This document shows positions 1 through 59,475 of a DNA stretch of 64,000 nt, one piece after another. The notes under the pieces were generated by a model, which did not search any database, was not told the DNA's origin, and saw only the letters and a program-made list of their open reading frames with translations. Numbering within the stretch: position 1 is the stretch's first letter; each line of letters begins with the position of its first letter. The stretch is from Gammaproteobacteria bacterium. Lineage in GTDB: Bacteria > Pseudomonadota > Gammaproteobacteria > Ga0077536. Location: contig JACPPA010000021.1 of assembly GCA_016191285.1 (NCBI GenBank), positions 14,473 to 78,472 on the forward strand, given 5' to 3'. The position numbers and the translations under genes were made by a program.

Positions 1-12
1 GGCTCCGGCGGC

Positions 13-1071
13 ATGTTCGTCAGCAGCGAGAAATTCATCGAGGCCCACAGCGGCAAGATCGGCGACATCTCCATCTACGGCCAGGAGTCCAACTACACCA
101 CCTGGCGCCTGGCCAAAATGAACCTCGCGATTCGCGGCATCGACGCCCAAATTGCCCACGGCGACACCTTCTACAACCACGGCCACCCGGATCTCAAGGC
201 CGACTACGTACTCGCCAACCCGCCCTTCAACGACAGCGATTGGCGCGACGAACTGTTGAAGGACGACAAACGCTGGGTCTACGGCGTGCCGCCCGCGGGC
301 AACGCCAACTACGCATGGGTGCAGCATTTCATTTGTCACCTCGCGCCCACCGGACTCGCCGGCTTCGTGCTCGCCAATGGATCGATGTCGTCAAATCAAT
401 CCGGCGAAGGCGAGATCCGCAAGGCCATCATCGAAGCCGACTTGGTGGATTGCATGGTCGCGCTGCCCGGTCAGCTCTTTTACTCAACGCAAATCCCGGT
501 CTGTCTGTGGTTTCTCACACGCAATAAAGCGGCTCGACATTTCACCGCTCCCTCCCGTCATTCCGGCGCGCTTTCCGATCTTTCCACCGCCCTTTCTCAT
601 CATTCCGGCGCCCCTTCTCGTCATTCCGGCGAAAGCCGGAATCCATCTTTCCGCGACCGTCGCGGCGAAACGCTTTTCATCGACGCCCGCAAAATGGGCT
701 CACTGGTGGACCGCACCCATCGCGAACTGACCGACGACGATCTCGCCAAAATCGCCGGCACCTCTCACCGATGGCGCGGTGACCCGATTACCCCCTCTCC
801 CCTCGCGGGAGAGGGCCGGGGTGAGGGGGAGACGCGTTATCAAGACATCCCCGGCTTCTCCAAATCCGCAACCCTCGAAGATATCCGCAAGCATGGCCAC
901 GTACTCACACCGGGCCGTTACGTCGGAGCAGCGGATGTCGAAGACGACGGCGAGCCGTTCGAGGAGAAGATGAAGCGGCTTGCCAAGACGCTGCGTGAGC
1001 AGCAGGTTGAAGCGGCGAAGCTCGACGCCGCCATTGCCGCCAACCTGACGGGGCTTGGGTATGGCGGGTGA
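13..1071 (+). CDS. hsdM: Type I restriction-modification DNA methyltransferase subunit HsdM (5' end cut by window edge)
   Basis: N6-adenine MTase motif IV LANPPFN; HsdM C-terminal blocks (LFIDARKMG ... [16 protein letters not shown] ... LTPGRYVG); stop overlaps the hsdS start. Confidence 0.9.
535..660. repeat. About 120 nt in-frame insertion of a VIPAKAGI-type palindromic repeat (three degenerate units of cgtcattccggcg...gccggaatcc) inside hsdM
   Basis: Same core as the intergenic repeats at 45100-45250 and 56280-56310. It adds about 40 aa ([33 protein letters not shown]) between the conserved HsdM blocks LWFLTRNK and [11 protein letters not shown], with no stop codon. Confidence 0.7.
789..832. 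repeat. Short GC-rich palindromic element (ccctctcccctcgcgggagagggccggggtgaggggg) inserted in-frame in the hsdM 3' region
   Basis: Encodes [13 protein letters not shown] between the conserved RWRGD and YQDIPGF blocks. A near-identical element type occurs in hsdR at 6104-6152. Confidence 0.6.
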
Positions 1072-2435
1072 GTGGCGTGTTTGCACCGTCGATCAGATTA
1101 AATCGGAAGACGAACGCGCCATTGCCATTGGTCCTTTTGGCTCGCGCATGAAAGCGGACAAGTTATGTCGCGAACGGTGTACCTGTTATCCGGGGAAACA
1201 ACATTTCGGACACTCGCGCACTCATCGGCGATCTCGTTCACGTTTCTGAAGAGACGGCAGACGAACTGCGTTCCTGTAACGTTTTCCCGCGCGACTTGGT
1301 TTTTCCACACCGAGGCGCCATCGGACAGGTTGGAATCGTTCCTGACGACCATAATGGTCGATACGTTCTGTCGACCAGTCTAATGAAGCTGACCTGCAAT
1401 AAAGCGTTGGTAGACCCGCTCTTCATTTTCTACTTTTTCCGATCTGATCTTGGACGTCACGCGCTGCTTCAGAACGCATCAACCGTCGGTACACCCGGCA
1501 TTGGACAGCCGCTAGCTTCGCTTCGCTCGATTTCTGTGCCCGTCCCACCCCTCCCCGAACAATGCGCCATCGCCCACATCCTCGGCACACTAGACGACAA
1601 GATCGAACTAAACCGACGAATGAACGAGACGCTAGAAGCAATGGCGCGAGCACTGTTCAAATCGTGGTTCGTGGATTTCGACCCCGTCCGCACCAAGGCC
1701 GAAGGCCGCGACCCCGGCCTGCCCAAGCCCCTCGCCGACCTGTTCCCGGATTCCTTCGAGGACTCGGAGCTGGGAGAGATTCCGAAGGGGTGGCACGTAC
1801 GGGCCCTTAATGACGTGCTGTCGGAGCTAGAAACGGGCGGCAGACCCAAGGGCGGCGTAGCCGGCTACGCGACAGGTACTCCGAGTGTCGGAGCGGAGAG
1901 CATCGTCGGTCTAGGTGTTTTCGATTATTCCAAGACTAAGTACATTCCTGACGAATTCTTCAAGAAAATGACCAAGGGCCGGACTAAGAGTCGAGACGTC
2001 TTGCTCTACAAGGACGGCGGCCGCCCCGGCGAATTCGAGCCACATGTAACGCTGTTCGGAGACGGATTCCCATTCGAGACATGTGCGATTAACGAGCACG
2101 TTTACCGCATGCGCTTGAATCCGGAAATCGGACAGAACTATCTATTATTCTGGCTTTCATCCGACGTGGTTATGGAAGAAATGCGAATCAAAGGAACTGG
2201 TGTCGCGATCCCGGGTTTAAACTCTACTCAGGTGAAGTCGCTCACCATGCAAGTGCCGCCGACTCAGGTGGCGAAGGCCTTCGATGCACTAACCGATCCG
2301 AGCATCACGAGAATTCTCAGTGCCTGCAAAGAATCACGCACGCTTTGTATCCTGCGCGACTCACTGTTGCCGAAACTGATTTCGGGCGAGGTGCGGGTGA
2401 AAGATGCGGAGACACAAATCGGGAGGGCAGTTTGA
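1061..2435 (+). pseudogene. hsdS: Type I R-M specificity subunit HsdS, disrupted by a frameshift near nt 1160-1166 (or a sequencing error)
   Basis: The N-terminus MAGEWRV...IAIGPFGSRMKADK reads in frame 2. The continuation YVANGVPVIRGNNISDTRALIGDL...LPEQCAIAHILGTLDDKIELNRRMNETLEAMARALFKSWFVDFDP... reads in frame 0, and that frame has a TGA at 1149-1151. Combined length of about 457 aa is typical for HsdS. Confidence 0.75.
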
Positions 2436-2884
2436 TGGCAGACCTAAATCTTACCCAAGCTGAAGCGGACGTCCTTATCGCAATGGTTAAGCATCGGCTG
2501 GACACAACCGAGTGGGACTATCCCGACTTTGGTGGTGTGATCTCAGTTCCGCTGGTATCCATTGATCGACGAGAGCAGTTTCTACTCGACGTTCGCCGAG
2601 GACGAATCGACCTGGCAAAGGGCACATATCAGAATCGCGGTCGCCAGGTCGTAGTACTTGTGCGACTCGACTTCGGTGGGGCGCCGCAACGGAACCCTGA
2701 CGGCGAGGAGATCGGCTCGCCTCATCTTCACGTTTATCGCGAAGGATTCGGCGACAAGTGGGCTCTGACCGTACCTCGCAACCGGTTTACTAATCTGGGG
2801 AACCTTTGGCAAACGCTCGAAGAATTCATGCGGTTTTGCAACATCGTTGACACACAGATCATTAGGAGAGGGCTGTTCACATGA
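2435..2884 (+). CDS. Hypothetical protein (149 aa) embedded in the Type I R-M operon
   Basis: ATG at 2435 overlaps the hsdS stop (TGATG) and is preceded by a GGGAGG RBS. Its stop overlaps the next gene's start (ATGA). No family recognised with confidence. Notable motif [25 protein letters not shown]. Confidence 0.6.
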
Positions 2885-3645
2885 TTGGCGAGATACAGGC
2901 TCTCCTTGATCAATATTGGGCATGGCTTCGTGACAAAACGACCCTCCGTCAGATCGACGACTGGATCGAGATTACGACGCCATACCTTGACCGCCACAAT
3001 GATCAACTCCAGATTTACGCAAGACGCCGTGATAGCGGATTTGTGCTGACTGATGACGGTTATATCCTCCAGGACCTGGCGCAGTCAGGTTGTGGCCTTG
3101 ATAGCGCAAAGCGACAGGCATTGCTCAAGATGACGCTCAACGGATTTGGAGTGCGGGTCAATAACCAGAACCTCGAAGTCCACGCTTCGCCCGATAATTT
3201 TGCGCTCCGTAAGCACAACCTTGTGCAGGCCATGCTGGCCGTAAACGATCTCTTTTATCTAGCGTCGCCCATGGTCGCGAGTTTGTTCTACGAAGACGTC
3301 GTTTCCTGGCTTGACCTGTCCGACATTCGGTATACGCCCAAGGTCAGTTTCCGCGGCAAGAGCGGATACGACCATCTCTTCGATTTCGTGATCCCAAAGT
3401 CCAAGGCCCAGCCCGAACGCATCCTACGGGCGATCAGTCGGCCTAACCGCGACACTGCTCAGTCGGTAGCGTTCTCATGGATCGACACGAAGGAGGTACG
3501 TGCACCGCAGTCTCGCGCCTACGCGATCCTAAACGACGATGGGCATCCTATCGCAGAGACCGTTTTGGATGCTATGCGGAATTACGACGTGCGGCCGGTG
3601 CTCTGGTCTGGGCGAGACGCAGTCAGACAGGAACTCGCGGCCTGA
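2881..3645 (+). CDS. Hypothetical protein (254 aa), translationally coupled to the upstream 149-aa ORF
   Basis: 4-nt ATGA overlap with the upstream ORF. Sits between hsdS and hsdR. No family recognised with confidence. Confidence 0.6.
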
Positions 3646-3675
3646 CCGTGCGCAGATAAAGAAACGTCGCGCAGA

Positions 3676-3850
3676 AACAAGGGACACCCATGTATTCGAT
3701 ACCGATAAGTTTTGATGGGGCCTCACCGCGCCTGAGCGCATTGTCGGATGTCCGCCGAAATACGGGACACCCGTGAATTCGATACCGATAATTATTGATC
3801 GGGCATTGCTCGGTCCGAGCACTATGCTGGGTGTCCCGGAATTCGTCGTC
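3676..3850. promoter_or_regulatory. Three copies of a GGGACACCC / GGGTGTCCC palindromic motif, two inside about 33-nt direct repeats (gggacaccc[a/g]tg[t/a]attcgataccgataa), upstream of rhuM-hsdR
   Basis: Direct repeats at 3676-3711 and 3758-3795, plus an inverted partial copy at 3826-3848. All lie in the 230-nt gap immediately upstream of the RhuM start. Confidence 0.45.
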
Positions 3851-3876
3851 ATGGCAACTATCGAGGATTTGTCGGC

Positions 3877-4875
3877 GTGATCAATCCGATCGATGCGCGC
3901 GGTGGCGAGATCCTGCTCTATGAAGCCCCTGACGGAGAAGTCCGTGTAGACGTACGACTCAATCACGAGACTGTCTGGTTGACGCAGGACCAAATGAGTC
4001 GGCTGTTTGGGCGGGAGCGATCGGTTATTACCAAGCACATCCGCAACCTTTTTCGGGAGGGAGAGCTTGAGCCAGAGGCAACCTGTTCAAAATTTGCACT
4101 GGTTCAAACCGAGGGCGAAAGAACCGTTACACGCGAAACCGATCACTACAACCTCGACGTGATCATCTCCGTCGGCTACCGAGTCAAATCCAGCCAGGGC
4201 ACGCGCTTTCGTCAATGGGCCACCCGTGTATTGCGCGAACATCTGGTGCAGGGCTACACGTTTAACCAGACCCGGCTGGCGGAGCGCAGTCTGCTGGAGG
4301 CGCGACAGACGCTAGACCTTCTTGCGCGCACGCTGCAAAACCAGGCATTAGTGGACGACACCGGTCGCGCGGTCTTGGACCTCATCGTCGGCTACGCCGA
4401 GACTTGGCGCCTACTGCTGGAGTACGACGAAGATCGACTGGCATTACCGTCCGGTGCCAAGCCCTCCTCTGGTGTGCTGGATATTGCGCGAGCCAACGCC
4501 GCGATTGGCAACTTCAAGCGCGAATTGATGGCGCGTAACGAGGCCACGCCACTGTTCGGTAATCCGCGCGGCGAGGCGTTGGAAGGCATTCTCGGCAGCA
4601 TCGAACAGACCATGTTCGGCGAAAGTTTGTACCGATCGCGCGAAGAGAAAGCCGCCAACTTGCTCTATCTGGTCATCAAGGATCACCCCTTCTCGGATGG
4701 CAACAAGCGCATCGGCTCCTTCCTCTTCATGCTCTACTTGCAACAGGAAAGCATGGCGCATCAACTCAATCCACAGGCACTGACAGCCCTTGCGTTGCTC
4801 ATCGCCGAAAGCGCCGCCGCCAACAAGGACTTGATGGTCCGGCTGATCATCAATCTGTTGACGGAACGCCGATGA
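3877..4875 (+). CDS. rhuM: RhuM-family virulence protein with a C-terminal Fic/DOC motif
   Basis: N-terminal RhuM blocks ([33 protein letters not shown] ... [26 protein letters not shown]). C-terminal Fic/Doc motif [11 protein letters not shown]. Typical occupant of the hsdS-hsdR gap. Its stop overlaps the hsdR start. Confidence 0.85.
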
Positions 4876-7800
4876 CGGCCTTCACCGAAACCATCGTCGA
4901 AGACGCCGCCCTCGCCTGGCTCGAAGCGCTCGGCTACTCCGTGCTGCACGGTCCGGACATCGCGCTCGGCGAGCCCGGCGCAGAACGCGTCGATCCGAAC
5001 TATCGCGACGTGCTGCTGGACGATCGCCTGGGTCAAGCGCTCATCCGGCTGAATCCAGACTTGCCACGTGAAGCGCTCGAAGACGCCCACCGCAAACTGT
5101 TGCGCAACGAGGCGCCGTCGCTGCTGGAGCGTAATCGAACCTTGCGCCGGCTGTTGGTGGATGGGATCACCGTCGAATACCGTCGCCCGGATGGCTCAAT
5201 TGCCGGCGGTCAGGCGTGGGTCATCGACTTCGATACCCCGGACAACAATGACTGGTTGGCGGTCAATCAATTCACAGTCGCTGAAGGCCAGCACACGCGC
5301 CGGCCGGATGTGGTGGTGTTCGTCAACGGCTTGCCGTTGGCGGTTATCGAATTGAAAAATCCCGCCGATGAGAACGCGACCGTTTGGAGTGCCCATCGCC
5401 AGTTGGAGACTTATCAGGCGCAGATCCCCGCGCTCTTCATCACTAACGCCGTGCTCGTGGCATCGGATGGCGTGCAGGCGCGTATCGGTGCGCTTGGCGC
5501 GGGCAAGGAATGGTTCAAGCCCTGGCGCACGATCAGCGGACGTGAGATCGCGCCGGCCAAGTTGACCGAATTACAGGTGGTGCTGGAGGGCGTGTTCGAT
5601 AAAAAACGCTTCCTCGATCTGCTGCGCTACTTCATGGTGTTTGAAGACGCCGCTATTTCTGGGGGCGGCGGCAAGCTTACGAAGAAGATGGCGGGCTACC
5701 ACCAGTTTCACGCGGTGAATGTGGCGGTTGAGGAAACGCTCCGCTCGGCGCGATTTGATCAAAGCGAATCACAAGGTCGCTATTCGGCGGGATTACACGC
5801 CGGGGGCGATCCCGGCGATCGGCGCGTCGGCGTGGTCTGGCACACGCAAGGCTCGGGCAAGAGTCTGACGATGGCCTTCTACGTCGGGCGGGTGATCTTG
5901 CATCCGGAAATGCAAAATCCAACCGTGGTCGTGATCACCGACCGCAACGATCTGGACGAGCAACTCTTTAGCACCTTCGCCCTGTGTCGAGATTTACTGC
6001 GACAGCCACCGGTGCAAGCGGCCGATCGCGCCGATCTGCGCGCGAAACTCACGGTCGCTGCGGGTGGCGCGGTGTTCTCCACCATTCAGAAGTTCTTCCC
6101 TGAAACCCCCTCACCCCAACCCTCTCCCGCTGAGGGGCGAGGGGGAAGAATGGAGATGCTCTCGGGTCGACGCAACATTGTGGTGATCGCGGACGAAGCG
6201 CACCGCAGCCAGTACGATTTTATCGACGGTTTTGCGCGCCACCTGCGCGATGCGCTGCCGAATGCGTCGTTCGTCGGTTTCACTGGCACGCCAATCGAAA
6301 CGACGGACGCAAACACGCGCGCCGTCTTCGGCGATTACATCAGTATTTATGACATCCAGCGCGCCGTTGTCGATGGCGCCACGGTGCCCATCTACTACGA
6401 GAGCCGCTTGGCTAAGCTTAATCTCAAAGATTCCGAGCGCCCGAAGATCGATCCCGAGTTCGACGAGGTGACGGAAGGCGAGGAAGTCGAGCGCAAGGAG
6501 AAACTCAAGAGCAAATGGGCGCAGCTCGAAGCGGTGGTCGGCGCCGAGAGTCGACTCAAACTCATTGCGCGTGATCTAGTGGAACATTTTGAGAATCGAC
6601 TGACGACGATGGACGGCAAGGCGATGGTGGTGGTGATGAGTCGCCGCATCGCGGTGGAACTCTACCGCGAGCTGGTGGCGCTCTGCCCGATCTGGCATGG
6701 CGAAGACGATGAACATGGCGCGCTCAAAGTCATCATGACGGGCTCCGCTTCGGATCCGCTCGATTGGCAGCCGCATATCCGCAACAAGCCGCGTCGCGAA
6801 ACATTGGCCGCGCGCTACCGGAACCCGAAGGATCCGTTTCGCATCGTCATCGTGCGCGATATGTGGCTCACCGGTTTCGACGCGCCGAGCATGCACACGA
6901 TGTATGTGGATAAGCCCATGCGTGGGCACGGGCTGATGCAGGCCATCGCGCGCGTGAACCGCGTATTCAAGGACAAACCCGGTGGCTTGGTCGTCGATTA
7001 TTTGGGGTTGGCCGACGAACTGAAACAGGCGATGGCCACATACACCGAAGCCGGTGGCACCGGCAAGACGGCCATCGATCAAGCCGAGGCTGCGGCGTTG
7101 ATGTTGGAAAAGCATGAGATCTGCTGCGCGCTGTTTCACGGCCTCGATTGGTCGCCGTGGACCTCGGGTACGGCGCAAGCTCGGCTCTCGCTGCTGCCGG
7201 CCGCGCAGGAGCACATCCTGGCCCAGGATGACGGTAAGAATCGGCTATTGCGCGCTGTCTCCGAGCTCTCTCAAGCGTTTGCGCTGGCCGTGCCGCACGC
7301 AGAGTCGATGCGGATCCGCGATGACGTGGGTTTCTTCCAGGCGGTGCGCGCCGTGCTCGCCAAGCGCCTAGCCGGCGATCGTAAAGCGGACGACGATCTC
7401 GACCATGCCATTCGGCAGATCATCTCGAAGGCGATGGTCTCGGACGAAGTCGTCGATATCTTCGCCGCCGCAGGCCTGAAGAAGCCCGATATCTCGATCC
7501 TCTCCGACGAGTTTCTCGCCGAGGTGCGCAATTTACCGCAACGTAACCTTGCAGTGGAACTGCTGCAAAAACTGCTGAAGGGCGAAATCAAAACGCGGGC
7601 CAGGCGCAATGTGGTGCAGGCGAAGTCGTTTGCGGAAATGCTGGAACAATCGCTGCGGCGCTACCAGAACCGGGCGATCGAAACGGCCAAGGTCATCGAG
7701 GAATTGATCCAGCTTGCAAAGGACATGCGGGCCGCGAGTCAACGCGGCGAACAACTCGGTCTCAACGATCACGAGGTCGCGTTCTACGACGCATTGGAGA

Positions 7801-8048
7801 CCAACGACAGCGCCGTGAAAGTGTTGGGCGACGAGGCGCTACGCACGATCGCGCGCGAACTGGTCAAGACGGTGCGCGCCAACGTCACCATCGATTGGAC
7901 GATACGCGACAATGTCCGCGCCCAGCTTCGTGTGCTGGTCAAGCGCATCTTGCGCAAATACGGCTATCCCCCGGACAAGCAAGAGAAGGCCACGCAAACG
8001 GTATTGGAGCAGGCCGAGGTGTTATCCGCGGAGTGGGCGGGGGTGTAG
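4872..8048 (+). CDS. hsdR: Type I restriction enzyme R subunit HsdR (1058 aa)
   Basis: Helicase motifs ([10 protein letters not shown] Walker A; [15 protein letters not shown] box), size and operon context. Carries an in-frame palindromic element at 6104-6152 that encodes [15 protein letters not shown]. Confidence 0.9.
6104..6152. repeat. GC-rich palindromic element inserted in-frame in hsdR
   Basis: cccctcaccccaaccctctcccgctgaggggcgaggggg lies between the conserved TIQKFF and [12 protein letters not shown] blocks. Same element type as hsdM 789-832. Confidence 0.55.
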
Positions 8049-8613: not shown

Positions 8614-9801
8614 CTACCGAACCTTGATCATCACCATGAAGCCATCGGCGAATTTCTGCGCGCCGATATGAAAATCACCATTGATGTCGGAGATCAGCAG
8701 CGAATCGCCGGCGAACGCCACGCCGACGGGGTTCGCCAATCCCGAGGCAACTAGCACGAGCTCGCCCTGTGGCGTCACGCGATAGACGCGGCCATCGCTG
8801 GGAACTCGTTCCGTCGCTTCGACCTCGTTGTTCCAATCGCCGGCATCGCTGATGAAGAGCTCGCCGGCGAACCTGCCGAAGCGCTGGGGTGCAAAGGCCA
8901 TCGCGCCTGGCTCGTGCAGCCCGTTGACGAACGGTTGCGGCGTGATGGTCCCAGCGGCGGATACCCGCAAAATCCTGCCGCCCCCTGGTATCGTCTTGGC
9001 GCGATTGCCCGGTGTCGGCGCGGCACTGCCGAGCAACATCGTTTCCCCATCGGGCGTGAAGCCAATGCCCCGCGGAGAGCCCCACTTGGCCAAATCCACG
9101 GTCAGGAATGGCGTACAAGCGCCGTCGGGTGTGACTTGATAAAGGGTGTGATTGCTCGCCGCCGTGACCCACAGCTTGCCGGCAAACGGGCCGTGTTCGG
9201 GACCGAATCGCGCAAAGAAGCCGCCGGCGCCCGGTTCGTGCGCGTCGTTTTCCGGGAGGAAGCAGACGACGGTGTCACGGCCCGTCGCCGGATCGATACG
9301 CGTAATAGCATCGGGCAATTCCCACCCGCCGGCCTTCTCCGGCTTCGCGAACGCGACGGTATAGATCTGTCCCGCAAACTTGCCGAAGCTCGGCGGCGCC
9401 ACGTCCAGCGAAATCGGCGCGTGCTGCTTGATGTCGGCAAGCACTGCAACGTGGCCGTCCGTCGTGACCTCGAAGATCGCGCCGCTCTTGGCATCGTCCG
9501 CGACCCACACCGTCGTGTCATCGACCACGTGGATATCGAACGGATCGTAAAGTTGCGTTCGCGGCGGGACCAGCACGGTAAACGTGAATTCGTCTGCCGT
9601 CTTGATCGGCGGAACGGCGAACACGCGCGCGAGTGTTGCCTTGGACACACTCAACGGTAGCTGCACCCAATCGGGCGCGTCCTTTTCCATCTCCGTGGGG
9701 GAAGACGCGCGCGCCGACGCTTCCGCTGCGATGGTCATTGGCGCACTCGCCAGACAGGTCCACAGGCAAATGACGGTTAGCAACAGTGGGCTGTGCCGCA
9801 T
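8614..9801 (-). CDS. Secreted beta-propeller protein (SMP-30/gluconolactonase/LRE-like or NHL-like repeats)
   Basis: Internal ATG at 9801 with an AGGAAG RBS. Signal peptide MRHSPLLLTVICLWTCLASAPMTIAAEA. Repeated ...TxDG... blade motifs (VWVADDAKSGAIFEVTTDG, LWVTAASNHTLYQVTPDG, RVYRVTPQGELVLV). Confidence 0.6.
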   Translation of the reverse strand: MRHSPLLLTVICLWTCLASAPMTIAAEASARASSPTEMEKDAPDWVQLPLSVSKATLARVFAVPPIKTADEFTFTVLVPPRTQLYDPFDIHVVDDTTVWVADDAKSGAIFEVTTDGHVAVLADIKQHAPISLDVAPPSFGKFAGQIYTVAFAKPEKAGGWELPDAITRIDPATGRDTVVCFLPENDAHEPGAGGFFARFGPEHGPFAGKLWVTAASNHTLYQVTPDGACTPFLTVDLAKWGSPRGIGFTPDGETMLLGSAAPTPGNRAKTIPGGGRILRVSAAGTITPQPFVNGLHEPGAMAFAPQRFGRFAGELFISDAGDWNNEVEATERVPSDGRVYRVTPQGELVLVASGLANPVGVAFAGDSLLISDINGDFHIGAQKFADGFMVMIKVR

Positions 9802-10230
9802 ATTCACTTCCTCATCAGTGCGTTTGTTCCGCGCGAAAAACGACGTTCGCGCCAATGCTACGATTGATAGGGACGACTTTGACAAGCCGTGGATCCCCGC
9901 CTCATCCGGGAGCCCACGCAGCGCGCCGGCGAGGTCATACGTCCAGCCATGAAAGCCGCAGGTGAAGGCGGCACACTTGCCGGACTCACGCGTTTCCACG
10001 ACGTGGCCGCGGTGGCGGCTCAGATAATCCATCGCCGGACGGGCCACTGCCAACATCGCATCGTAGAACGCTCGAATCTCGGCCATGGTCGACGCTTGTC
10101 GCTTGGCGGCTCGGGCATTCGAATCCGGCAGCACCCAGGCACTGACGAAGCCTTGCACGGCATCGAAGCCGGCGGGAAGTTGCGGATGCGCCGAATGGCT
10201 GGCAGTCGGATCGTCGGGCTGTGCGGTCAT
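9802..10230 (-). pseudogene. Degenerate Rieske [2Fe-2S] domain fragment (ring-hydroxylating dioxygenase alpha-subunit-like), fused in-frame with no stop to the downstream secreted-protein gene
   Basis: LSRHRGHVVETRESGKCAAFTCGFHGWTYDLAGALRGLP matches the Rieske CxH-x16-CxxH box, but the first Cys is Ser. Only about 140 aa, against about 430 aa for an intact alpha subunit. No stop before the signal-peptide Met at 9801. Confidence 0.35.
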
Positions 10231-23975: not shown

Positions 23976-23990
23976 CTGAATTGTATGGCT

Positions 23991-24060
23991 ATTGTGGGAG
24001 CGGCTTTAGCCGCGAATCTTTACTGAGGTCAATTCGCCGCTAAAGCGGCTCCCACAGGTG
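23991..24060. repeat. REP-like hairpin (gtgggagcggctttagccgcgaa ... ttcgccgctaaagcggctcccac) between convergent dctA and the glucan synthase; possible bidirectional terminator
   Basis: Perfect inverted repeat of about 23 nt with a 22-nt loop. Same family at 35500-35625, 37322-37392, 50042-50128 and 59441-59470. Confidence 0.7.
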
Positions 24061-35499: not shown

Positions 35500-35625
35500 G
35501 GAAGCCGCCTTGTGGGAGCTGCCTTGTGGGAGCTGCCTTGTGGGAGCCGCTTTAGCGGCGAATCTTTTTTGACGACTGATGTGATCCGCCATTTCGCCGC
35601 TAAAGCGGCTCCCACCATAGCAATG
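35500..35625. repeat. REP-like cluster: three tandem half-sites (gtgggagctgccttgtgggagctgccttgtgggagccgctttagcggcgaa) plus the inverted partner
   Basis: Direct reading of the sequence. Same family as 23991-24060. Confidence 0.7.
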
Positions 35626-37321: not shown

Positions 37322-37392
37322 GCATTTTGTGGGAGCCGCTTTAGCGGCGAATGGGGCATTTCCAGAGAATTCGCCGCTAAAGCGGCTCCCAC
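37322..37392. repeat. REP-like hairpin
   Basis: gtgggagccgctttagcggcgaa ... ttcgccgctaaagcggctcccac. Confidence 0.7.
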
Positions 37393-37404
37393 ACCAAGCG
37401 ATCC

Positions 37405-45089: not shown

Positions 45090-45450
45090 CTCGATAGGCG
45101 TTGTCGTCGTGGCGTCCGACCCTGCACCCGTCATGCCGGCGCACGCCGGAATCCAAAGAGCCTCAGAGCACCTACCACCGTCATGCCGGCGAACGCCGGA
45201 ATCCAAAGGGCCTCAGAGCACTCCCACCGTCATTCCGGCGAATGCCGGAATCCAGTGAAGAAATACTGTCCGCGCAATGCGCGGACACCTAATCCGACTG
45301 GATCCCGGATAACCGCTCCGCGAATGCCGGGATGACGGCGTGAGAACCGCGCCGCGCTCGCTACCCCCAACACCAGCGCGACAACGCCATCGAGTGTTTA
45401 CCCGGCCTGTTACGCCGGAATGACGATAAGTAAACTCTGGCGCACTTCGG
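45090..45450. repeat. MITE-like composite repeat cluster: three tandem 48-nt VIPAKAGI-type units plus a 110-nt module shared with 8290-8480
   Basis: ccaccgtcat[g/t]ccggcgaa[c/t]gccggaatccaaag.gcctcagagcac repeated three times (45117-45250), then an about 140-nt segment near-identical to 8340-8470. Confidence 0.75.
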
Positions 45451-45494: not shown

Positions 45495-46114
45495 CTATGC
45501 ATAGCCTGTAGGCGGGTCAAGATACCTTTCAATTCCATCCCAGGCCTTATCTTTGATCATCACAAAACGGCAGCGTCCATTGGATACTCCAGCCCACAGC
45601 CCGCCTATCAGGCGATCGTCTTCAGCATCGGTCCAGTGCTGCGCGCCCTTGTTTTCGACCGCAAGGATGCTGCCGCCCGGCAACTGGCAAAGGAAGTCGG
45701 GATAGAAACGTCCATCCGCTTCGGGAATGCCATGCCCGCCCTGCCGGACGCGCTGCGCCACGCGGGCAAGGCTTCTTCAGGGCTGGCGAGTTGGAGAAAG
45801 ATCAGTTTGACCCAGTATCCCGCGGCCTGCCATTGCTCGATCAAGCGCGAATAGTCGCGACCAGACAAGGTGCTTTCAAACGCGAAACTGACGCGCGCCG
45901 CGAAGTGCCGCGCCATTTCTTCCAACATGATTCGCCCGGCTTGCCTGGCAACGGTTTCTGGCGCAAACGGCGCCAGACCCGCGGCGATCAAGTCGGTATT
46001 GACGAACACTGGGCAATTGGCGTCGGTGGGTAGGAACTCGCGGGCAAAGGTCGTTTTGCCCGCGCCGTTGGGACCGGCAATGAGGATAACGCGCGGTGTG
46101 GCCGCCATTGTCAC
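45495..46114 (-). pseudogene. Zeta-toxin-like P-loop ATPase/kinase, frameshifted near nt 45768-45775
   Basis: Walker A GPNGAGKTT, then ...FAFESTLSG...LASPEEAL in one frame. The conserved continuation ARVAQRVRQGGHGIPEAD is in the -1 frame. The called frame ends in a low-complexity tail. Confidence 0.65.
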
Positions 46115-47462
46115 AGCTCCAGCGCGTAAGGGGTTTGCTTGAACACGATACCTTCACGCGAGAGGCGCACGCCCATGCGGCAGGCCGCCGCATAGATCAC
46201 CTTCGGACCGGCGAATTTCGGTAGCACGTCATACACCAGTCCGGTCAGCACGTTGCCGCCCGCCACCGATTTATCCTTGAGGATACCGTTATAGAGCAGA
46301 TAGATCGTCCGACCTTCGTGGGTGCCTAGCAGCGGCGAATCGCTTGTGCCGGTGTAGCCGCTGCCGGTTTCCGCGAACCACACAAATTCGGCGAGCTGGG
46401 CGAAGGTGACATTGGCGCGGATCTGGCCTTCGGCGGTGAAGAGTGGCTCAGCCGAGAGGCGGCAGAACTGGAAGCCGCCGCCGAGGCCGGCTACGACTTG
46501 TTCTTTCGTGTTGATGTAGCCCATGGTGACGCGCTTCACGCGTTCGGTAGTCACGTTGCGAGCAATATAGAACCACATTGTTTGCGGAACGATGCCGTCC
46601 TTCACGTCGGAGAGATAGCGCTTCAATCTCGGCATGTTATTGCCGTCCTCACCCCACCAGATGCGTCCATCCTTGTCGAGCTCTTAAAACTTCGCTTTTG
46701 ATACTCGCCAATACATGCCTTTCCCTGGGCCTGAGATCACTCGGCCCGAAGGACACGAAACCGAATACATTCCTTCCGAGTAGTAATTGCGAGCTTGTAG
46801 GTCCCCGGATGCTCAAGGCCCGCGTGGATCGCCACTTACATTCTTGTAGCGTGCGGTGGCTTCGTCCCCGCGAGGTAAAAGGCTGGGTTTCCATGTCTGG
46901 GCGTCGGTAGCATAAATCACGATGTAATCGTGATCTTCTGACAGATGCCGAGCTGAGTTTTTTGGCGAAAAAATCTTTTGCCACAATACCGTGGCTATAA
47001 ATTTCTCGTGCCAAAAATTTCATCCATTAACAGCCGCAGAGTCGCCACCTCGTTATCGTCAATCGAAATAAAAATCGTCCCGTCGTCGCGCAAGAACTGC
47101 TTTAGCAATAGGAGGCGTGGATACATCATGCACAGCCAGCGATCATGCCGGTCCAACGTCTCGCCTTCCTTGCCCACCACCTCGCCCAGCCATTTGCGAA
47201 TCTCCGGGCTGTTGACGTTATCGTTGTAAGCCCAACCTTCGTTGCCGGTGTTATAGGGCGGGTCGATGTAGATGCACTTCACCTGCCCGGCATAGCGCGG
47301 CAGGAGGGCTTTGAGGGCGTGCAGGTTGTCACCTTGTACGATCAGATTGCCGCTATCGGCATCGCCGCAGGACAATTCAGGCACCGGCTCCAGCAAGCGG
47401 AACGGGACCTCCTTGTGATGTTTGACGACGGCTTCTCTTCCGATCCAATTGAGTGTGGGCAT
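46111..47462 (-). pseudogene. N6/N4 DNA methyltransferase (Type III Mod-like, PF01555-type), disrupted by multiple frameshifts/stops
   Basis: N-terminal fragment with IYIDPPYNTGN (motif IV) and FISIDDNE. Middle segment readable only across frames (HDYIVIYATDAQTWKP ... YKNVSGDPRGPWASGDL ... DKDGRIWWGEDG). C-terminal fragment (PRLKRYL...TIYLLYNGIL...GNVLTG...IVFKQTPY). Confidence 0.7.
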
Positions 47463-50041: not shown

Positions 50042-50128
50042 TGATGCGTTGTTATTGTGGGAGCGGCTTTAGCCGCGAATTTGTCTCGATAAAGATTGGC
50101 CGCTGAGGCGGCTCCCGCAAGACCGCCC
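50042..50128. repeat. REP-like hairpin
   Basis: tgtgggagcggctttagccgcgaa ... cgctgaggcggctcccgca. Confidence 0.65.
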
Positions 50129-56094: not shown

Positions 56095-56470
56095 CGTGCG
56101 AACTAAATAGCGAAGCGGAAATACCGTCCACCCTGCGGAGGTTGGGCTTTAACTGCGTCATTCCGGCGTGGTCCCGGCCTGCGCCGGGAGGAATCCAGGA
56201 CATTGAGTTATTCGACTGGGTCCCGGCGTTCCAGGCCGTGTAAAAACTCCAAGTGAATTGGAGCAGCAGGGAACAAGAACCCAGTACACGTCATTCCGGC
56301 GAACGCCGGAATCCAGAAAAAAAGCAGATCCGCGCGCTGCGCAGAGGCCTACTCTGACTGGAAAGCCGGAGTTTCGCTTTGCGAATTCCGGGGTGACGGA
56401 CGGCGGTTCGAGTTTTTACACGCCCTCGTTCGCCGGCACGGACACCGCGCGTAAACCACGACGAAGGTCT
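56095..56470. repeat. MITE-like composite repeat cluster
   Basis: Copy of the 47800-47960 module (56105-56225), plus a VIPAKAGI-type unit (cgtcattccggcgaacgccggaatccag, 56290-56318) and a degenerate third module. Confidence 0.7.
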
Positions 56471-59440: not shown

Positions 59441-59470
59441 TGCTGGTGTGGGAGCGGCTTTAGCCGCGAA
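59441..59470. repeat. REP-like half-site
   Basis: gtgtgggagcggctttagccgcgaa. Confidence 0.5.
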
Positions 59471-59475
59471 GGCAT

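Follow-up and report, generated by a model that had tools for sequence, protein, structure and literature searches.

In Type I restriction-modification (R-M) systems, HsdS serves as the DNA-binding scaffold that holds two HsdM subunits and, through them, two HsdR subunits. Both the M2S1 methyltransferase and the R2M2S1 endonuclease need HsdS to assemble on a target, and classical Escherichia coli hsdS mutants, e.g. hsdS20 of HB101, are negative for both restriction and modification (r- m-). Disruptive frameshifts in hsdS are common; strains of Xylella fastidiosa carry frameshifted XfaI and XfaII hsdS genes, and fewer methylated bipartite motifs were detected in strains with XfaII hsdS frameshifts that are associated with simple-sequence repeats (SSRs) (bioRxiv 10.1101/2022.09.01.506293). 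Partial HsdS proteins can also suffice, as engineered half-HsdS proteins with one whole target recognition domain (TRD) and a conserved helix have demonstrated (PMC6158711); the same principle applies to the EcoDXXI and EcoR124I truncations, as far as they are cited in that paper. In the NgoAV system of Neisseria gonorrhoeae, a shift in a polyG tract that closes the first half of the gene gives an active, phase-variable product of 208 aa with a complete TRD1 and conserved region (PMC9577141; Adamczyk-Poplawska et al. 2011). Here, we describe an hsdS gene in a 64,000-nt stretch of DNA from a gammaproteobacterium (GenBank assembly GCA_016191285.1, contig JACPPA010000021.1, positions 14,473 to 78,472; hereafter the window, to which all coordinates refer). 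We consider it probable (roughly 0.77) that a genuine and recent single-nucleotide insertion has inactivated this hsdS within an otherwise intact Type I R-M operon.

Results and discussion

The hsdS gene is split between two reading frames

Translation from the native start codon, ATG 1061, gives 34 conserved HsdS residues (MAGEWRV...GPFGSRMKADK) and then 28 unrelated residues (LCRERCTCYPGKQHFGH...) before a premature TGA at 1247-1249. The 5' fragment of hsdS in its native frame, codons 1-34, thus occupies 1061..1162 on the forward strand, and the out-of-frame residues complete a frameshift product of 62 aa. The remainder of HsdS (YVANGVPVIRGNNIS...) is encoded in the +1 frame, which has a TGA at 1149-1151, continues with KRTS-YVANGVPVIRGNNISDTRALIG... 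(YVANGVPVIRGNNISDTRALIGDLVHVSEETADELRS...) and stays open until 2435. This 3' part (codons 35-457; 1164..2435, forward strand) comprises the remaining TRD1, the central conserved helix, TRD2 and the C-terminal conserved helix, and its 423 codons after the shift hold neither a stop nor a second indel. The first canonical start codon of the +1 frame is TTG 1296. Upstream, the hsdM stop codon TGA lies at 1069-1071, so that hsdS overlaps hsdM by 11 nt, and an overlap of the same length is found in an intact homologous operon (L002).

Removal of one T, 1163 or 1164, joins the two parts into a protein of 457 aa, to which we refer as the repaired HsdS. When this protein was compared with the window by tblastn, residues 1-34 matched 1061-1162 in frame 2 with 100% identity, and residues 31-457 matched 1152-2432 in frame 3. 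A preliminary description of the sequence had proposed a frameshift that splits hsdS some 100 nt after its start. Both halves indeed match HsdS proteins at a level far above chance, and the coordinates, the frames and the positions of TGA 1149-1151 and TTG 1296 given there all hold on translation.

Intact homologues place a single extra T at the break

The repaired HsdS matches the Pfam family PF01420 (Methylase_S) with E=1.7e-18 over residues 33-192, as well as the Specificity_I models of PADLOC and the HsdS chains 1yf2 and 2y7c in the Protein Data Bank (PDB). Of its 8,000 homologues, P0001 (457 aa) is the best over full length; it has 80% identity over 98% of the length (E=1.9e-250) and aligns free of gaps, and the repaired HsdS is collinear with homologues of 457 aa. 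The junction itself showed no missing or extra residue in the multiple alignment: RMKADK/YVANGVPVIRGNN in the window (the slash marks the junction) stands against RMKADRYVAEGVPVIRGNN, and with the flanking residues GPFGS-RMKADK/YVANGVPVIRGNNISDTR in the window stands against GPFGS-RMKADRYVAEGVPVIRGNNISDTR in the homologue.

At the DNA level, we compared the window with three intact homologues that share TRD1 (L002, L006 and L007; about 79-88% identical in this region). Each of the three alignments contains exactly one gap column, at 1163/1164, where the window reads GACAAGTTATGTC (GACAAGTTATGTCGCG) and the homologues read GA(C/T)AGG-TACGTC (GA(C/T)AGG-TACGTCGC). One T of the dinucleotide at 1163..1164 is hence the inserted nucleotide and shifts the frame by +1. 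The break site, AAGTTATG, holds this TT dinucleotide and not a homopolymer, which agrees with the earlier placement of the switch near 1160-1166 outside any homopolymer; the comparison with intact homologues, of a kind proposed at the same time as a check, resulted in the one extra T. As the three intact homologues lack exactly one base and the repaired protein is collinear with its relatives, the lesion is, judged from these alignments, a single-nucleotide insertion after codon 34, as opposed to a larger rearrangement or the loss of 2 nt.

The remaining features of the gene are those of its family. The collinear alignment, together with an AlphaFold2 model of a homologue, recovers the order TRD1, central helix, TRD2 and C-terminal helix in the repaired HsdS, and the operon context is present with the overlap at the hsdM end and hsdR at 4872-8048. 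One uninterrupted reading frame is what the gene lacks, owing to the +1 frameshift after codon 34. The gene thus belongs to the HsdS family on all three counts of sequence, architecture and context, and its broken frame marks it as a putative pseudogene or null allele.

Internal starts, recoding and phase variation

A broken hsdS may still be of use to the cell if translation restarts downstream of the break. As engineered half-HsdS proteins show that a partial HsdS can suffice, we considered that reinitiation at TTG 1296, ATG 1383 or ATC 1188 yields a truncated half-HsdS that dimerises and confers a new palindromic specificity. Dimers of half-HsdS proteins can be active enzymes (PMC6158711; for NgoAV, PMC9577141), TRD2 and both conserved helices are intact in the window gene, and TTG 1296 lies only 47 nt past the premature stop, at a distance where reinitiation is conceivable. 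The start sites, however, speak against it. The duplex energies with the anti-Shine-Dalgarno sequence were -3.0 kcal/mol for ATC 1188 and +0.9 kcal/mol for TTG 1296, compared to -5.0 kcal/mol for the native hsdS start, -8.5 to -11.7 kcal/mol for good starts nearby and a background of -2.3 +/- 2.4 kcal/mol within hsdS. For ATG 1383, the start of the gene call in the Logan assembly described below, the score of about +0.4 refers to position 1384, one base too far, and inspection by eye of the sequence upstream (acgttctgtcgaccagtcta) revealed no evident Shine-Dalgarno (SD) motif. A scan for promoters and terminators returned none inside hsdS or near the break. Usable internal starts thus appear to be absent from hsdS, with ATC 1188 and TTG 1296 lacking SD pairing and none evident at ATG 1383.

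The predicted structure points in the same direction. In the AlphaFold2 model, made for the collinear homologue with 80% identity (mean predicted local distance difference test score, pLDDT, 90; predicted template modelling score, pTM, 0.84), two long helices at residues 164-204 and 401-441 divide two globular domains. TRD1 spans about residues 1-163, with strands at 6-9, 21-23, 40-43, 59-61, 79-82, 101-103, 107-110 and 158-161, and is followed by the central conserved helix (164-204), TRD2 (about 230-400) and the C-terminal helix (401-441). Mapped onto this model, the 62-aa product, native only in residues 1-34, would retain of TRD1 just one short helix and the two initial strands. A protein restarted at residue 43, 79 or 108 would have its first residue within TRD1 and be short of three to seven strands of this domain, leaving a stump of 55-120 residues that is likely to misfold, whereas the known active half-HsdS proteins keep a complete TRD and conserved region. 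No homologue in the multiple alignment has such an arrangement. Given the poor starts, the loss of TRD1 strands and the need of active half-HsdS proteins for a whole TRD, a functional truncated HsdS is very unlikely. This applies also to translation from TTG 1296, which the preliminary description had listed as one option and which is disfavoured both by its energy of +0.9 kcal/mol and by a product that would lack the first two helices along with four of the nine strands predicted for TRD1. Slimmer still is the chance that the system has been re-tooled, with a reinitiated, truncated HsdS homodimerising through the central helix, TRD2 and the C-terminal helix to give HsdM and HsdR a symmetric bipartite specificity; if true, such an HsdS would be a natural counterpart of NgoAV made from the C-terminal half and without a repeat tract. 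A natural half-HsdS of the NgoAV type was also considered as a class of its own and set aside: the N-terminal product has 34 native residues, and the C-terminal restarts fall inside TRD1.

The frameshift may in principle also be bypassed or reverted. Either a programmed +1 ribosomal frameshift would provide full-length HsdS at a low level, or the gene would switch on and off at high frequency, as the hsdS genes of some pathogens are phase-variable through frameshifts. The known phase-variable cases need simple-sequence repeats such as polyG or polyC, while the window offers only TT at this site. Tandem Repeats Finder (TRF) detected no tandem repeat inside hsdS; the only array within 400-1400 is that at 558-631 in hsdM. 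With regard to recoding, the codons GAC AAG TTA TGT allow no +1 re-pairing (the +1 codon is AGT after AAG and TAT after TTA), the in-frame stop follows 84 nt downstream and none is adjacent, and a rare-codon pause was not identifiable. The local RNA fold is not better than that of shuffled sequence (z=+1.18), and all three close homologues are unshifted here, so the site is not conserved. We therefore rejected a programmed ribosomal frameshift, for want of a slippery site, RNA structure or conservation, and an SSR-controlled phase-variable hsdS, for want of a simple-sequence repeat or homopolymer at the site; together, we give these two mechanisms next to no credence.

Predicted consequences of the insertion

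An inactivating insertion in hsdS would affect the whole system. Translation from the native, hsdM-coupled ATG 1061 would end at TGA 1247 and give the 62-aa peptide only. HsdM and HsdR would then be left without their specificity partner, and restriction and modification would be lost together (r- m-). Because both vanish at the same time, loss of HsdS is a safe, non-lethal route to inactivation. Of the three alternatives raised in the preliminary description, loss of specificity, and with it of both activities, is the most likely on the present evidence. The lesion may also reach beyond hsdS. With its ATG overlapping the hsdS stop, the DUF6978 gene would no longer be translationally coupled, but a strong SD of its own (-10.8 kcal/mol) is present. 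Some transcriptional polarity on the genes further down, hsdR among them, might also result from the stretch of about 1.2 kb of hsdS mRNA that would stay untranslated.

For annotation, the correct label of the gene is that of a frameshifted pseudogene, and in censuses of defence systems the Type I system of this metagenome-assembled genome (MAG) should be counted as probably inactive. Databases currently list the broken gene (1188-2435) as normal proteins without a pseudogene flag, namely as MBI2800689.1 (415 aa, ATC start) and as a Logan protein of 350 aa (ATG 1383). Beyond correct annotation the lesion is of little importance, being an ordinary gene-inactivating mutation with no new mechanism.

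Real mutation or artefact

An extra T may also have entered the sequence during consensus building or by local misassembly of the metagenome, with the real hsdS being intact. MAG consensus sequences can carry local errors, the window is apparently MAG-derived, and the 423 codons downstream of the break are perfectly preserved, all of which would suit such an artefact. To judge this, other occurrences of the locus are informative. A protein of 350 aa (P0002) that is 100% identical to the 3' part of hsdS originates from the Logan assembly of run SRR12113392. The corresponding Logan contig of 7.4 kb matches window 948-7435 at every one of 6,488 nt (100% identity) and shares the extra T. A literature search for the accession of this run gave no match. 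The same 90% cluster as P0002 contains the NCBI protein MBI2800689.1 ('MAG: restriction endonuclease subunit S [Gammaproteobacteria bacterium]'; 415 aa, on a 194-kb contig), whose sequence is the translation of the window from ATC 1188 with Met substituted. This shows that the deposited MAG, probably the source of the window, has the same break, and that its annotators chose a non-canonical start downstream of it.

The same extra T in a separate Logan assembly, and its being implied by MBI2800689.1, makes an assembler artefact unlikely: two different assembly pipelines arrived at the identical base, even though the Logan contig was probably built from the same reads. The position of the T in a TT dinucleotide, not in a homopolymer, is likewise not an error-prone context. 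Other long open reading frames (ORFs) of the window are uninterrupted (2,830, 1,607 and 1,058 aa), and many of its enzymes have full-length Pfam matches, which indicates that the assembly is not prone to indels. The homologous intact genes of the window, among them ORFs 8.5 kb and 4.8 kb long, have no similar break. The other broken genes seen, those of a Type III remnant, show large deletions that are impossible as sequencing errors. An artefact is therefore the less likely explanation compared to a genuine insertion, and the preliminary suggestion of an assembly error lost ground to that of lost specificity in view of the second assembler, the downstream-start annotation at NCBI and the intact long ORFs.

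A genuine insertion would be young. Conservation in at least 10 of 12 homologues defines 205 alignment columns, and the repaired HsdS agrees with 200 of them, within the range of the intact homologues, which show 1 to 99 disagreements in the same test. Since the downstream frame exhibits no further decay or drift, we infer that the insertion is evolutionarily recent.

Several observations nevertheless count against a genuine, inactivating mutation. Since both assemblies probably go back to one read set, the extra T may reflect a systematic sequencing error or a polymorphism between minority and majority alleles, and the perfectly preserved downstream ORF suits an artefact as well as a recent mutation. 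The genomes provided no conspecific intact allele: in a scan of genome contigs with the repaired protein, among which the species of the window is not represented, the best match had 63% identity. A DNA pattern spanning the junction with a gap of 0-2 nt had no match in metagenome contigs. In the database look-ups the hsdS locus is carried by one sample only, and an exact look-up of the neighbouring DUF6978 protein returned the same Logan contig only; one of the NCBI protein P0121 returned no record. The r- m- phenotype is a prediction from the sequence, and HsdM and HsdR could be rescued if the genome has another hsdS elsewhere; within the 64-kb window, tblastn with the repaired protein found none.

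Operon, cargo genes and palindromic inserts

The operon is arranged in the order hsdM, hsdS, three embedded candidate-defence genes and hsdR, all on the forward strand. The gene hsdM (1..1071), encoding the N6-adenine methyltransferase subunit, is cut by the window edge at its 5' end and otherwise intact in frame (Pfam N6_Mtase, E=1e-72). Downstream of hsdS follow a DUF6978 gene (2435..2884; PADLOC candidate PDC-M24A), whose ATG overlaps the hsdS stop in TGATG (2433-2437) and is preceded by the strong SD, a DUF1828/DUF1829 gene (2881..3645; PADLOC candidate PDC-M24B) and a RhuM/Fic-domain gene (3877..4875; PADLOC candidate PDC-S23). The restriction/translocase subunit is encoded by hsdR (4872..8048), an intact ORF of 1058 aa with the Pfam domains HSDR_N, SWI2_SNF2, T1R_D3-like and T1RH-like_C. 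The reading frames of both hsdM and hsdR are uninterrupted, and their conserved motifs are present; the window HsdM is 77% identical to that of L002, and HsdR is 75-80% identical to its homologues.

The hsdS-hsdR gap (2435-4875) constitutes a variable cargo slot in which homologous operons differ. In L002 (2361-7261), the slot holds genes with CTD7, MC3 and LmuB_C domains, and in L006 (4350-7353) an AAA_15/21 ATPase with DUF4276 together with a DarT-Macro pair. The spacer between the DUF1829 and RhuM/Fic genes (3670-3835) consists of two tandem copies of an 83-nt unit that are 73% identical, and the second copy contains the only promoter-like match within 900-5000 (3764-3792).

Three palindromic elements resembling repetitive extragenic palindromes (REPs) lie in frame within coding sequence, at 535-645 and 788-829 in hsdM and at 6106-6147 in hsdR. 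The first forms an insert of about 36 aa and includes the array at 558-631, which has a period of 21 nt and ends in the hairpin GTCATTCCGGCGAAAGCCGGAATCCA; members of its family also occur between genes at 45121-45269 (three copies) and 56281-56330. The second corresponds to an insert of about 13 aa and has an inverted copy in hsdR, where an in-frame insert of about 10 aa is located just upstream of the DEAH motif. All are missing from HsdM and HsdR homologues of 77-82% identity, and hsdM of L007 carries a different REP-like insert in the same loop. Such inserts recall the palindromic elements found in ORFs of Rickettsia.

A decayed Type III locus and other features of the window

A second R-M locus of the window is long dead. 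On the minus strand at 45519-47462, tblastn queries with the full-length Mod and Res of a Sphingopyxis plasmid detected the remains of a Type III mod/res locus. Of Mod, residues 1-154 are left at 47462-47001, residues 150-185 in another frame at 47016-46903, and residues 423-574 at 46539-46120, with residues 186-422 deleted; of the 888 residues of Res, only 822-885 remain (45710-45519). A zeta-toxin/AAA-like ORF (45608-46114) lies between the fragments, and a Pfam search of the small Type III fragments gave no match. The degraded locus demonstrates that decay of R-M systems genuinely occurs in this lineage, and the hsdS lesion fits as a first step of the same decay. The 64-kb window would thus present a snapshot of R-M turnover, with a freshly broken Type I system next to a long-dead Type III system.

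Two further observations concern other parts of the window. Residues 68-111 of a 538-aa ORF on the minus strand (8614-10230) match no more than part of the Rieske profile (positions 40-82 of 88). Downstream of this match, an internal Met precedes a signal-peptide-like stretch (MRHSPLLLTVICLW...); the actual gene probably has an internal start, with the 5' part left over, by chance in frame, from a Rieske oxygenase gene. A second family of intergenic palindromes (TGTGGGAGCCGCTTTAGCGGCGAAT and its complement) was found at 23990-24056, 35538-35616, 37327-37393, 50053-50119 and 59444-59471. Its members occur as inverted pairs at gene ends and look REP- or terminator-like.

Comparison with known systems

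Like hsdS1/hsdS2 of NgoAV, the window gene is an hsdS split by a one-base frameshift in an hsdM-hsdS-hsdR locus. Unlike in NgoAV, the shift is situated at codon 34 in non-repetitive sequence, and its N-terminal product is a TRD1 stump of 34 residues. The engineered half-HsdS proteins were cut cleanly at domain borders and properly expressed, whereas the restarts in the window begin inside TRD1 and have no evident ribosome-binding sites. In Xylella, the effect of the frameshifts was measured on the methylated motifs, while here it is deduced, for an uncultured host known only as a MAG. Frameshifted hsdS genes are commonplace, and the finding is in kind already known. The window gene most resembles the loss-of-function alleles of hsdS, in which a point indel truncates HsdS, hsdM and hsdR stay intact, and both activities are expected to be lost.

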